Part shown: piece by piece, positions 42,558-59,160 of the stretch
Layout of the letters: every line of letters begins with the position of its first letter
How positions within the stretch are numbered: position 1 is the first letter of the stretch
Origin: Corallococcus sp. RDP092CA
GTDB taxonomy: Bacteria > Myxococcota > Myxococcia > Myxococcales > Myxococcaceae
DNA length: 64,000 nucleotides
Direction of reading: 5' to 3'
NCBI RefSeq assembly: GCF_041903675.1
Contig: NZ_JAYESI010000001.1
Coordinates: 224,643-288,642, forward strand
Translations under genes and position numbers: made by a program
The notes under the pieces: generated by a model
Told to the model about the DNA's origin: nothing
Seen by the model: the letters and a program-made list of their open reading frames with translations, nothing else
Database searches by the model: none

Positions 42558-45500
42558 ATGGGTGCGCTGACCAACTCTGCTCCTGCGACGGAAGTGTCCG
42601 CGGTGTCGGCGCTCAGGGCCCACCTGCTGGAGGCGTTGGCCTCCCGCAACGGCCTGTCGCCGGAGCAGATCGACGTCCGCCGGCCCTTCAGCCACTACGG
42701 CCTGGACTCGCTGGGCGCGGTGGCGCTCGGCCGCGCGCTCTCCGAGCTGCTGGGCCGGGAGGTGCCTCCCACGGTCTTCTGGCGCTGCGCCAGCGTGGAC
42801 GCGCTCGTGAGGCACCTGGCCTCCGGCGACGCGGACGCGGCGGCCCCCGAGGTGGCCGGGCCGCCCTCCGTGGCCCGCGAGGAGCCCATCGCCGTGGTGG
42901 GCATGGCGTGCCGCCTCCCCGGCGCGCCGGACCTCTCCGCGTTCTGGGAGCTCCTGCGCTCCGGGCGCGACGCGGTGACGGAGGTCCCCGAGGGGCGCTG
43001 GGCGGATGGGCGGTTGCAGCAGGCGGACCGCGACGGGAGCGGTGCGCGGGTGCCGCGCCGCGCCGGGTTCCTGCCGGACATCGCGGGGTTCGACCCGCTG
43101 TTCTTCGGCATCTCCCCGCGCGAGGCGGCGGAGATGGATCCGCAGCAGCGCCTGTTCCTGGAGCTGGCGTGGGAGGCGCTGGAGGACGCGGGCATCGTGC
43201 CGCGGGCGCTGCACGCGACGGCGACGGGCGTGTTCGTCGGCGCCATCTGGCGGGACTACGCGGAGCTGGGGGGCGCGGAGCCGGGACGCATCACCCCGCA
43301 CACAGCCACCGGGCAGGCGCTCAACATGGTCGCCAACCGGCTGTCCTACGTGCTGGGCCTCCAGGGGCCCAGCCTCGTCATCGACACCGCGTGCTCGTCG
43401 TCGCTGGTGGCGGTCCACCTGGCCTGCCAGAGCCTGTGGGCGGGGGAGAGCACCGCCGCCATCGTCGGGGGCGTGAGCGTGATGGCCTCGCCGCACACGA
43501 TGGTGGCGCTGACCCGCTTCGGGGGCCTGTCCCCGGACGGCGTGTGCAAGGCGTTCGACGCGAGCGCGGACGGCTTCGGCCGCGGCGAGGGCGGGGGCGT
43601 GGTGGTCCTCAAGCCGCTCTCCGCCGCGCTCGCCGCGGGCGACACCATCCGGTGCGTCATCCGCGCCACGGGCAGCAACAACGACGGCCCGAGCAACGGC
43701 CTCACCGCCCCCAACCCGGAGGCCCAGGAGAAGCTGCTCCGGCAGGTCCACGCGCGCTCGGGCGTGGCGCCCGGCGCGGTGGGCTACGTGGAGACGCACG
43801 GCACGGGGACCGCGCTGGGGGACCCCATCGAGGCGGGCGCGCTCGGGGCCGTGTTCGCGAAGGCGCGCGCGGAGGGCCCGCCGCTGGTCATCGGCTCGGT
43901 GAAGACCAACATCGGCCACCTGGAGGGGGCCGCGGGCATCGCCGGCTTCCTCAAGGCCTGCCTGTGCGTCGAGCGGCGCACGGTGGTGCCCAGCCTCCAC
44001 TTCACGCGGCCCAACCCGCTCATCCCCTTCGAGGCGCTCCGCCTGGAGGTCGCCCGTGAGACGCGCGCGTGGCCGGTGCCGGACGGGCCGGCGGTGGCTG
44101 GCGTCAGCGCGTTTGGCTGGGGCGGCACCAACGCCCACGTCGTCCTCCAGGAGGCCCCGCCGTCGCGGCTCGCCTGGGTGGGGCTTGGGGCCTCCGACGC
44201 GGAGGGACTGAAGGCCGCGGCCCTGCGCGCGCTCGACGCCGTGCGGGCCGGCGTGCCGCTCGACGCGCTCCCCCAGGCGCTGGCGGCGGACGCAGCCGGC
44301 CCGGAGCGGCTCACGCTGTGCGCGCGCACGCGGCACGAGCTGGAGGCGCGGCTGCGCGGGTTCCTGGACGGGGTGACGGGGGCGGTGTCGCTGGGGACGG
44401 CGCCCGGCCGGCCTCCGCGAGTGGCGTTCGTCTGCGCGCCCCAGGGGGGCCAGTGGGTGGGCATGGGCCGGCGCATGCTCCTGTCGGAGGACGCCTTCCG
44501 CACGGCCTTCGAGCGCGTGGACGCAGCCCTGGCGGTCCACTCCGGCCAGTCGCTGCGGGAGGAGCTGTTCAAGGCGGAGGGCGCTGCCCGCTACGACGAC
44601 GTGGACGTGGTCCAGCCGCTCCTGTTCGTGTTCCAGGTGGCCCTGGCGGAGCAGTGGCGCGCCTGGGGCATCACCCCGGACGTCGTCGTGGGGCACAGCC
44701 TGGGGGAGATCGCCGCCGCGCACATCGCGGGCATCCTCGACCTGGAGGAGGCGGCGCTCGTCATCCACCACTACAGCCGCCTCCAGAGGCTCCTCGCCGA
44801 CCGCGGCGGCATGGCCGTGGTCAACCTGCCGCCCGAGGCGCTCACCGGGCCGCTGGAGGCCACGGGCGGCGCGGTCGTCCTGGCCGGCCAGAACGGGCCC
44901 CGGTCCACCGTGCTGTCGGGGGAGCCGGCCGCGCTCGACGCGCTCCTCGCGGAGCTCAAGCGCCGCAAGGAGCTGTGCGCGCGGATCCGCGTGAACGTCG
45001 CCGCGCACAGCCCGCAGATCGACGAGATCCTCCCGGAGCTGGAGGCGGTGCTCGCCGGGCTCCGCCCGAAGCCCGCGCGCCTGCCGATGATCTCCACCGC
45101 GTGGCAGCGGCGGCTGGACGGGCCGGAGGTGGACGGGCGCTACTTCGGCCAGAACCTGCGCACGCCCGTGTGGCTCGCCCCCGTGCTCGCGTCGCTGGTG
45201 TCCGACGGCGTGGACGCGCTGGTGGAGCTCAGCCCCCACCCCGTGCTGGTGGGCGCGCTCCAGCAGGCCGCGGAGGGCCGGCGGCCTCCGCCCGTCGTCC
45301 TGCCGTCCACCACCCGGGACGAGGACGAGCGGCTGGCCCTCTACGAGTCGCGCGCCACGCTCTTCCGCCTGGGATGCGCGGGGGCGGCCCCCCCCGCCGC
45401 CCGCGACGTGCTGGTGCCGCTGTCGGCCCACACGTCGCGGGCGCTCCAGGAGCTGGCGGCGCGCATGGCCGGGGCGCTCCGTGAGGCGCCCTGGACGCCG

Positions 45501-59160: not shown

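Follow-up and report, generated by a model that had tools for sequence, protein, structure and literature searches.

A ketoreductase-free hybrid polyketide-peptide operon of Corallococcus sp. RDP092CA and its relatives in two phyla

The question raised by a three-gene operon of Corallococcus sp. RDP092CA is how a modular polyketide synthase (PKS) with two dehydratase (DH) domains but no ketoreductase (KR), two tandem acyltransferases (AT) in its first protein and a defective AT in its second may build and release a product. The operon, encoding the proteins P1, P2 and P3, is located in a stretch of 64,000 nucleotides (contig NZ_JAYESI010000001.1, positions 224,643 to 288,642; referred to as the window), to which the coordinates given for the strain refer. 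It is read here, with moderate confidence for the explanation as a whole, as an intact, expressed-looking orphan hybrid of a PKS and a nonribosomal peptide synthetase (NRPS).

A three-protein line without ketoreductases

An earlier note on this DNA had proposed three translationally coupled genes, and the junctions bear this out: the TGA stop codon of P1 (48096-98) ends 2 nt before the ATG of P2 (48101), with AAGGAG preceding that ATG, and P2 and P3 share an ATGA overlap (51121-24). A promoter scan 5' of P1 retrieved none. The domain orders read earlier for the three proteins agreed with the Pfam matches and the translations (Table 1). P1 contained two PP-binding domains, a ketosynthase (KS), two Acyl_transf_1 stretches and a DH (PKS_DH_N and PS-DH); P2 a KS, an AT fragment covering profile positions 67-134 of 319, and a PP-binding domain; and P3 a KS, an AT, a DH, a PP-binding, a Condensation, an AMP-binding, a second PP-binding and a Thioesterase domain. 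The E-values of these matches spanned 1e-10 to 1e-165, so that chance matches are no concern. The Cys-His-His set was present in all KS domains and the attachment Ser in all carrier domains.

No match to a KR or enoylreductase (ER) domain was found in P1-P3 by Pfam at E <= 0.01, and a phmmer search (--max) of these proteins, for which two KR and two ER domains of relatives served as queries, gave 2.5 bits at most. The Rossmann motif of KRs (GxGxxG/A) was absent from all three, which agrees with the earlier statement that they lack a KR, and no unassigned stretch between domains exceeds about 100 amino acids, which is too short for a KR. The same KR-less three-gene architecture was retrieved from 12 actinomycete species and several Myxococcota, the hosts including Streptomyces, a metagenome-assembled genome (MAG) of the Mycobacteriales, Lentzea, Actinokineospora, S. 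olivoverticillatus, Pendulispora and a metagenomic myxobacterium, and the design was kept at more than 20 loci, which are spread over two phyla. The Lentzea type differs in that the same three KR-less modules are preceded by a fully reducing module, which builds a longer tail. From this, the modules without a KR and the cyclisation (Cy) module of P3 would together form a conserved head group that may be placed on variable tails. Gene searches covered the window and 10-kb flanks of the relatives; a conserved gene for a KR, a short-chain dehydrogenase/reductase (SDR) or an AT was not present in any examined flank of these more than 20 loci. Literature searches on the exact domain strings gave nothing relevant, and no characterised cluster with this combination of features was found in the literature examined. 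Each oddity has partial precedent, namely split loading modules, AT-less modules, the product template (PT) of AviM, and fusions of a PKS to a Cy domain (HMWP1, EpoB and TlmB).

The reading frames of P1-P3 were intact in four Corallococcus genomes at 89-94% identity, the orthologues being those of Corallococcus aberystwythensis, C. exercitus and C. coralloides, and the dN/dS values of the catalytic domains, calculated from four Corallococcus sequences, were 0.08-0.22, or 0.08-0.26 when all such domains are counted. The G+C content at third codon positions (GC3) of P1, P2 and P3 was 0.96-0.98, and the overall G+C content ranged from 67 to 77% across the window, with 73-77% for the PKS operon (42001-58000) versus 67-70% for the flanking genes (36001-42000). 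The higher G+C content of the operon and its spread across phyla are compatible with horizontal acquisition.

Starter loading, the inactive acyltransferase and extender units

P1 carries an ACP N-terminal to KS1 and two consecutive ATs after KS1, according to both Pfam and its translation, which is the split-loading order of SorA-type proteins. The first of these ATs, AT-a, reads HHYS (Tyr739) at the position of the carboxylate-binding Arg, compared with CRRS in the second one, AT-b, and VRG in the AT of P3, AT3. In FabD and the FAS MAT, this Arg binds the carboxylate of the extender unit. AT-a was without it in every orthologue of both phyla. The tandem AT was also found in the orthologues of Streptomyces, the Mycobacteriales MAG and Pendulispora, where the AT of module 2 is intact. 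Further, AT-a was missing exactly in those relatives that have a complete module upstream of KS1, namely Lentzea and one Streptomyces, in which P1 is longer and reads ...KS-AT-DH-ER-KR-ACP-KS-AT-DH-ACP. Because its Arg is replaced, and because it is present alongside an intact AT2 and absent when a module precedes KS1, AT-a is regarded, on this comparative evidence, as the starter loader and not as a spare AT for module 2. The proposal that the extra AT of P1 serves the AT-dead module 2 was thus not sustained.

Indeed, ACP-KS-AT-AT has been described as a myxobacterial fused loading and first-extension module, in which KS1 separates the loading AT from its ACP, as in the pathways of soraphen, myxothiazol, myxalamide, chondramide and miuraenamide (PMC10051162), with SorA using its first AT to transfer the benzoyl starter (PMC5655351). 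P1 resembles these proteins (SorA, MiuA and their myxothiazol, myxalamide and chondramide counterparts; ACP-KS-AT-AT-KR-ACP) in its N-terminal ACP, its KS, its two ATs with the first one as the starter loader, and its myxobacterial host. In SorA-type modules, however, a KR follows the tandem AT, whereas in P1 a DH does, and the P1-type tandem AT also occurs in Streptomyces orthologues.

The AT of P2, AT0, had been described as truncated and lacking the catalytic Ser, with GQGVGE as its motif. Motif reading and alignment to intact orthologues confirmed this: the GQGSQ loop is lost, and two deletions, one of 20 and one of about 75 amino acids, were found, the latter of which takes out the small subdomain, the Arg and the VASH specificity motif. 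The actinomycete P2 orthologues contain a complete AT with an FPGQGxQ loop, GHSMGE, the CRRS Arg and VASH, and AT2 of Pendulispora is intact too. In a metagenomic myxobacterium that is syntenic with the window (L084), the P3 of which is only 73% identical to that of Corallococcus, the AT is also dead (GQGLGE) and its small subdomain deleted. From this distribution, the lesion appears to be old, limited to one myxobacterial lineage, and tolerated. The dN/dS of AT0 was 0.37, close to that of the linkers (0.42), versus 0.12 for both KS2 and ACP2; AT0 hence evolves like a linker, whereas KS2 and ACP2, which are under strong purifying selection, belong to the most constrained parts of the proteins. 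As module 2 is still used and its AT is dead, ACP2 must be charged from outside the module.

The best candidate donor is AT-b, since it is the closest paralogue of AT2 and bears the same motifs. Indeed, intact AT2 domains are 53-59% identical to AT-b versus 34-44% to AT-a and AT3, and AT-b and intact AT2 share RVDVVQP, GHSMGE and VASH. Loading of ACP2 in trans by AT-b is therefore the most likely arrangement as judged from these comparisons. Alternatively, module stuttering has been proposed around the inactive AT of irumamycin (PMC11672594); stuttering of module 1 would here give the same chain as loading by AT-b. As in AT-less modules of trans-AT lines and in modules with an inactive cis-AT domain (irumamycin M12; PMC11672594), ACP2 would be charged by an AT outside the module, and the KS-AT linker and the post-AT linker are kept as a scaffold. 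Unlike in trans-AT lines, only one of the three modules is affected, no discrete AT gene lies nearby, and the intact ancestral state is visible in orthologues. The line does not belong to the trans-AT PKSs, as two of its three modules contain intact cis ATs and as neither the window nor the related flanks contained a discrete AT gene.

Concerning the extender units, the VASH motif goes with methyl-, ethyl- or methoxymalonyl-CoA (PMC7327777, PMC10646177), and its presence in AT-b indicates an alpha-substituted malonyl unit as the probable substrate. In S. olivoverticillatus (L080), the gene directly 3' of the P3 orthologue encodes a crotonyl-CoA carboxylase/reductase (CCR; TIGR01751, 611 bits versus a cut-off of 379). 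There, the CCR, a cytochrome P450 and a ferredoxin gene follow the P3 orthologue (6627-9362), a set that is reminiscent of thiotetronate clusters. The predicted chain consists of a starter, two alpha-substituted malonyl units and one malonyl unit, all of them left as ketones.

Dehydratase domains and the cysteine module

The two DH domains of the line differ in their state. In P3, the motif R954-HPCLADC961-RMGGMRVVN970 was aligned by HMMER to the LADH... motif of CurJ (3KG8, E 1e-23), which places Cys961 on the catalytic His, so that the alteration of the first DH motif noticed earlier was real. All orthologues of this domain (DH*) carry Cys for His and Asn for Pro, and retain DxxxQ. A DH* query was scanned against 1.84 billion representative proteins, yielding 3157 relatives, and architectures were read among the best 150. 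The latter included ten clusters with the order KS-AT-DH-ACP-Cy-A-T-TE, some of them incomplete, and all ten were without the His (Cys in four, Phe in four to five and Gly in one), mostly with VN in place of P. None of the approximately 136 His-bearing DH domains among these 150 precedes ACP-Cy. Phe is also the substitution used to inactivate CurJ (PDB 5TZ6, which was among the PDB matches of DH*). Because the His drifts to Cys, Phe and Gly, which share no chemistry, and because Phe is the CurJ-inactivating substitution, the most fitting reading of DH* is that of a dead dehydratase, retained as a structural component of the termination cassette, in which it may play a non-catalytic, chain-holding role.

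In DH1, the domain of P1, the catalytic His, Gly, Pro, Asp and Gln are conserved throughout the orthologues, with a dN/dS of 0.26. Its best PDB relatives are ordinary DH domains, for example those of CurF and CurK, and a word-indexed homologue search with it gave a single match. Since an unused His drifts in DH* of the same family and that of DH1 is retained, DH1 is probably used catalytically. The earlier suggestion that the DH domains may be vestigial was thus justified for DH* only. A role of DH1 that would not require a KR, such as enolisation or cyclodehydration of a keto chain, is advanced tentatively, by analogy, as the slightly favoured possibility, although of less than even weight.

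The analogy is with AviM, a KR-less KS-AT-PT-ACP protein, the DH-fold PT of which is a His-dependent C2-C7 aldol cyclase (PMC9135731). The orsellinic acid synthases AviM and CalO5 share with the present line a KR-less KS-AT-(DH-fold)-ACP unit and an unreduced tetraketide, and their DH-fold domain acts without a beta-hydroxy substrate, the DH domains of P1 and P3 likewise residing in KR-less units. However, AviM is a single iterative module without an NRPS end, whereas this line has three colinear KS-containing modules, and the AviM PT needs its His (H949), which has a counterpart in DH1 (H1435) but is Cys961 in DH*, the domain beside the tetraketide-bearing ACP3. The affinity with cyclase or product-template domains that had been considered before did not appear at the sequence level: the best PDB matches of the DH domains were the DHs of CurJ, CurF, CurK and GphF, and the AviM PT (7VWK) was absent among the PDB matches at E <= 0.01 of DH1, DH* and a related KR-less DH. 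Membership of the AviM-type PTs was rejected, as no sequence link to 7VWK was found.

The Cy domain of P3 is 40-50% identical to canonical Cy domains, with EpoB as its best PDB match (E 4e-99), followed by HMWP2, BmdB and PchE. Cy domains possess an Asp-Thr dyad (PMC9547227), and the position of the dyad Thr is occupied by Ala1706 or its equivalent in 17 out of 17 family members, compared with Thr in 40 and Ser in seven of the 48 nearest outside Cy domains aligned there. The objection that this Cy domain cannot cyclise because of the Ala was withdrawn, as PchE carries the same residue, sharing VVFAS (the FAS variant) with P3 in the alignment. PchE is a proven hydroxyphenyl-thiazoline synthetase, in which T474 and Q482 have been proposed to replace the missing Thr (PMC8807600); their equivalents in P3 are T1743 and Q1751. 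The specificity code of the A domain, read by hand with GrsA/EpoB numbering, was DLWNMSMIWK (7/10 positions of the Cys code DLYNLSLIWK), and that of the actinomycete orthologues DLYNMSLIWK (9/10). No oxidase (Ox) domain was found in P3 by Pfam. The earlier prediction of a thiazoline- or oxazoline-forming cysteine module stood as to the Cy domain, the Cys-like code and the missing Ox domain; the thiazoline product itself is the most likely outcome on these features, though not a certain one, because a Cy-A(Cys)-PCP-TE end after a PKS module can also donate sulfur, as in thiolactomycin (TLM) biosynthesis. In the thiolactomycin synthase, such an end transfers sulfur to give a thiocarboxylate (bioRxiv 10.1101/2024.12.18.629141; PMC5518548).

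Both kinds of module offer comparisons. EpoA/EpoB, HMWP1 (yersiniabactin) and PchE (pyochelin) resemble P3 in that their Cy domain takes an acyl or aryl thioester and cyclises Cys, with a Cys code in the A domain; P3 differs by the lack of an Ox, methyltransferase or reductase partner and by its upstream unit, a KR-less PKS module with a dead DH. TlmB and TlnC (KS-AT-DH-KR-ACP-Cy-A-PCP-TE; PMC5518548, bioRxiv 10.1101/2024.12.18.629141) are, like P3, fusions of a PKS module to Cy-A(Cys)-PCP-TE, and they share with the family a tetraketide of which the last keto group is unreduced, a Cy domain without the dyad Thr and, in one relative (L080), CCR and P450 genes. TlmB is, however, iterative with an active KR and DH, and the residue at the dyad Thr position is Asn in the TlnC Cy domain versus Ala here and in the thiazoline-forming PchE, the TLM-type Cy domains being set beside P3 by their published description. 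Neither a P450 thiolactone synthase nor a KAS resistance gene was present in the window, a P450 occurring solely in L080. A thiolactomycin or thiotetronate identity, suggested by matches in Lentzea, was rejected, since TlmA/B form an iterative single module with a KR. The myxofacycline iso cluster of Corallococcus was rejected as well because of its different architecture with FAAL and aminotransferase domains.

Proposed pathway, alternatives and cluster borders

Taken as a working model, and with somewhat better than even confidence, the line would build a tetraketide without reduction in cis and end on cysteine. AT-a would load a non-carboxylated acyl-CoA starter onto the N-terminal ACP, judging from its motif, the comparative anatomy and the SorA-type precedent, and KS1 would extend it with a methyl- or ethylmalonyl-type unit placed on ACP1 by AT-b. 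KS2 and ACP2 would perform the second extension, with AT0 as a dead structural remnant and ACP2 charged in trans, AT-b being the likeliest donor, and KS3 and AT3 would add malonate. Beside ACP3, DH* would be a catalytically dead but structurally retained pseudo-dehydratase of the conserved KS-AT-DH*-ACP-Cy-A-T-TE cassette. Subsequently, the A domain would load Cys, and the Cy domain, with its PchE/EpoB-like active site, would condense and cyclise it into a thiazoline, which in the absence of an Ox domain would not be oxidised to a thiazole. The TE would release a 2-substituted thiazoline-4-carboxylate, the 3,5,7-oxygenated side chain of which is expected to cyclise further into a ring of the pyrone or resorcinol type.

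Several points weigh against this model. The gene searches covered 64 kb of this genome, and a stand-alone KR or AT may be encoded elsewhere. On ACP2, a triketide without any reduction would be expected to come off readily as a pyrone. DH1 is located in module 1 and not beside the tetraketide-carrying ACP, which is awkward for a PT-like role, and neither DH domain is detectably close to the AviM PT in sequence. Further, all family members carry Ala instead of the dyad Thr, which is also missing from the sulfur-transferring Cy domains of the thiolactomycin type. Finally, loading of ACP2 by AT-b is inferred, and AT3, FabD or stuttering of module 1 would yield similar or identical chains.

The main competitor is a KR acting in trans, encoded elsewhere or recruited as FabG, that would reduce the diketide on ACP1, so that DH1 would be an ordinary dehydratase and the product an enone-diketo chain on a thiazoline. 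The complete dehydratase motifs of DH1 in all orthologues and its kinship to ordinary DHs (CurF, CurK) speak for it, and an olefin at the module-1 position would, on chemical grounds, prevent derailment of the triketide into a pyrone. Nevertheless, this alternative, which ranks close behind a KR-independent role of DH1, is held with low confidence, as more than 20 loci, spread over two phyla, showed no conserved KR, SDR or candidate reductase gene in their flanks, the only reductase-like neighbour being the CCR of L080. It is still less probable, but not negligible, that the Cy-A-T-TE end uses Cys as a sulfur donor in the manner of TlmB/TlnC, leading to a thiocarboxylate or thiolactone, or makes another heterocycle as in caerulomycin. 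The end architecture does match that of TlmB, in which a PKS module is followed by Cy-A(Cys)-PCP-TE after a tetraketide (PMC5518548), the dyad Thr is missing from this family as from TLM-type Cy domains (bioRxiv 10.1101/2024.12.18.629141), L080 resembles thiotetronate clusters in its P450, ferredoxin and CCR genes, and the clusters of the family come with thiol-redox genes (AhpD-like CxxC, peroxiredoxin-like, thioredoxin). On the other hand, the same Ala is found in PchE, for which thiazoline formation is proven, residues D1749, Q1751 and T1743 are retained in P3, the solved Cy domains nearest to this one are canonical, and the window contains no P450.

Two further alternatives are very improbable. 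The arithmetic of a spare extender AT fits, as P1 has two ATs and P2 no active one, so that the second AT of P1 could serve the AT-dead module 2; yet AT-a lacks the Arg (HHYS) in all orthologues, persists despite an intact AT2 in Streptomyces, the Mycobacteriales MAG and Pendulispora, and disappears where an upstream module takes over loading. Moreover, this model would leave the N-terminal ACP without a loader, and the arrangement is that of the described split loading module (PMC10051162, PMC5655351). Likewise, there is little to commend the view of a decaying or silent relic, in which the lack of KRs and the inactive AT and DH would reflect erosion. The lesions of AT0 and DH* themselves, and the existence of true relics of the family (L079 and L083), are in its favour, but frames of 1007 to 2679 codons are intact in four Corallococcus species and L084, all catalytic domains, KS2 and ACP2 among them, have dN/dS values of 0.08-0.26, and the lack of KRs and the His-less DH* are conserved across two phyla.

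Table 1. Features of the P1-P3 operon and of the adjoining genes in the window.
Feature	Position	Strand	Description
ECF sigma factor	39744-40385	-	Upstream of P1
Peroxiredoxin/SelL-related redox protein	40475-41542	-	Upstream of P1
AhpD-like CMD-family gene	41726..42358	+	CSYC..H (CxxC) motif; Pfam CMD; GC3 0.91
P1	42558..48098	+	1846 aa; ACP_L-KS1-AT-a-AT-b-DH1-ACP1; fused loading module and extension module 1 (Pfam, translation, orthologue alignments)
ACP_L	42615..42842	+	Loading carrier; attachment Ser within LDSLG, residues 49-53
KS1	42870..44162	+	DTACSSS, HGTGT and NIGHLE present
AT-a	44403..45377	+	Predicted loading acyltransferase; GHSLGE, AAHS; Tyr739 replaces carboxylate-binding Arg
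AT-b	45648..46637	+	Predicted extender acyltransferase; RVDVVQP, GHSMGE, CRRS, VASH
DH1	46740..47627	+	In P1; intact H1435xxxGxxxxP and D1604xxxQ; no partner KR
ACP1	47700..47942	+	Pfam, orthologue alignment
P2	48101..51124	+	1007 aa; KS2-AT0-ACP2; extension module 2, dead AT
AT0	49781..50500	+	Remnant acyltransferase in P2; G641QGVGE (His to Gln, Ser to Gly)
P3	51121..59160	+	2679 aa; KS3-AT3-DH*-ACP3-Cy-A-T-TE; extension module 3, cysteine module and release domain
AT3	52786..53775	+	Malonyl-type acyltransferase; TRYTQAALF, GHSVGE, QAFH
DH*	53881..54825	+	In P3; CurJ-like double hot-dog; Cys961 for catalytic His, Asn970 for Pro; D1131ALFQ kept
Cy	55180..56550	+	D1490xxxxD1495 (D1490ALVVD1495), T1743, D1749, Q1751; Ala1706 at dyad-Thr position, as in PchE
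A	56593..58080	+	Code DLWNMSMIWK, Cys-like
T (PCP)	58138..58350	+	Pfam
TE	58393..59157	+	GWSMGG and GNHYT motifs
DUF5602 lipoprotein gene	59214..60164	+	GTG start, AAGGAG ribosome-binding site, LAGC lipobox; UniRef name DUF5602

The cluster itself appears to consist of the CMD gene, P1-P3 and the DUF5602 gene, to which other taxa add MFS and MarR genes; its borders were set at the CMD and DUF5602 genes because both accompany the PKS genes across taxa. Orthologues of the CMD gene, the true start of which is probably a few codons downstream of 41726, adjoin P3-like genes in four loci (L052, L080, L082 and L083). Five of six DUF5602 homologues examined adjoin P2/P3-like genes (in S. olivoverticillatus, Pendulispora, Actinokineospora, L084 and the Kofleriaceae MAG L052), and the sixth adjoins a relic of such a cluster. 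The DUF5602 proteins have 17 invariant residues, including four His, four Cys and one Met; a structure was predicted with a pLDDT of 92.6, for which no solved structural relative was found, and a literature search on DUF5602 gave nothing relevant.

Among the redox and sigma factor genes upstream of P1, only the CMD gene is conserved outside Corallococcus. A thiol-redox theme recurs around the cluster, as relatives carry a thioredoxin gene (L080) or a GCS2 ligase gene (L081) nearby. The DUF5602 gene is followed by a BNR/sortilin-repeat gene both in the window (60220-62766, plus strand) and in L084 (11084-12412), which may represent simple synteny or a further cluster gene. In the main Streptomyces group (L004-L007, L011, L018, L022 and L031), MarR, cupin and MFS genes occur upstream (~1.7-4.6 kb), and genes for a luciferase-like monooxygenase and a flavin reductase 3' of P3 (~21.6-23.6 kb); these flanks are absent from the myxobacterial clusters. 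Remnants were retrieved from two Streptomyces loci, namely a stand-alone DH*-ACP among conjugation and transposase (mobile-element) genes in S. albogriseolus (L079, 10001-11893), and an ACP/KS fragment and TE, with CMD and DUF5602 still following, in Streptomyces sp. (L083, 7875-9382). Elsewhere in the window, a single open reading frame of 11,082 codons (2066-35314, minus strand) codes for a giant NRPS-PKS with about nine C and about ten A domains, which also contains a single KS-AT-ACP module devoid of a KR as well as an embedded luciferase-like monooxygenase domain, and which ends in a TE. It presumably resembles the myxoprincomide megasynthetase of Myxococcus xanthus.

A wider view of the family is speculative and held with little confidence. 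The three KR-less modules and the Cy module would be a head-group machine, present in two phyla, that turns variable acyl tails into a new class of sulfur heterocycles or aromatics, with DH1 as a KR-free cyclase or cyclodehydratase, DH* as a non-catalytic template for the poly-beta-keto chain, and the AhpD-like CxxC protein and the secreted, His/Cys-rich DUF5602 protein handling or receiving the product. For this product, an alkyl-resorcinyl- or pyronyl-thiazoline carboxylate and a thioacid-derived ring are conceivable.

To our knowledge, no member of this cluster family has been characterised. Judged by its sequences, it represents an orphan family of PKS-NRPS hybrids, and most of its unusual features seem to be conserved design. 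As a family that crosses phyla and counts at least ten clusters at 50% identity, it is a defined target for genome mining. Module 2 is a natural experiment, in that a cis-AT module has long persisted despite its dead AT, with selection still acting on its KS and ACP, and the intact ancestral AT2 of relatives makes AT sharing directly testable. The line also contains an internal control for the use of DH domains, as the unneeded His drifts in DH* and the conserved His of the KR-less DH1 argues that this domain has an activity. Finally, DUF5602 and the AhpD-like CxxC protein, two accessory families, are here newly connected with a biosynthetic pathway.

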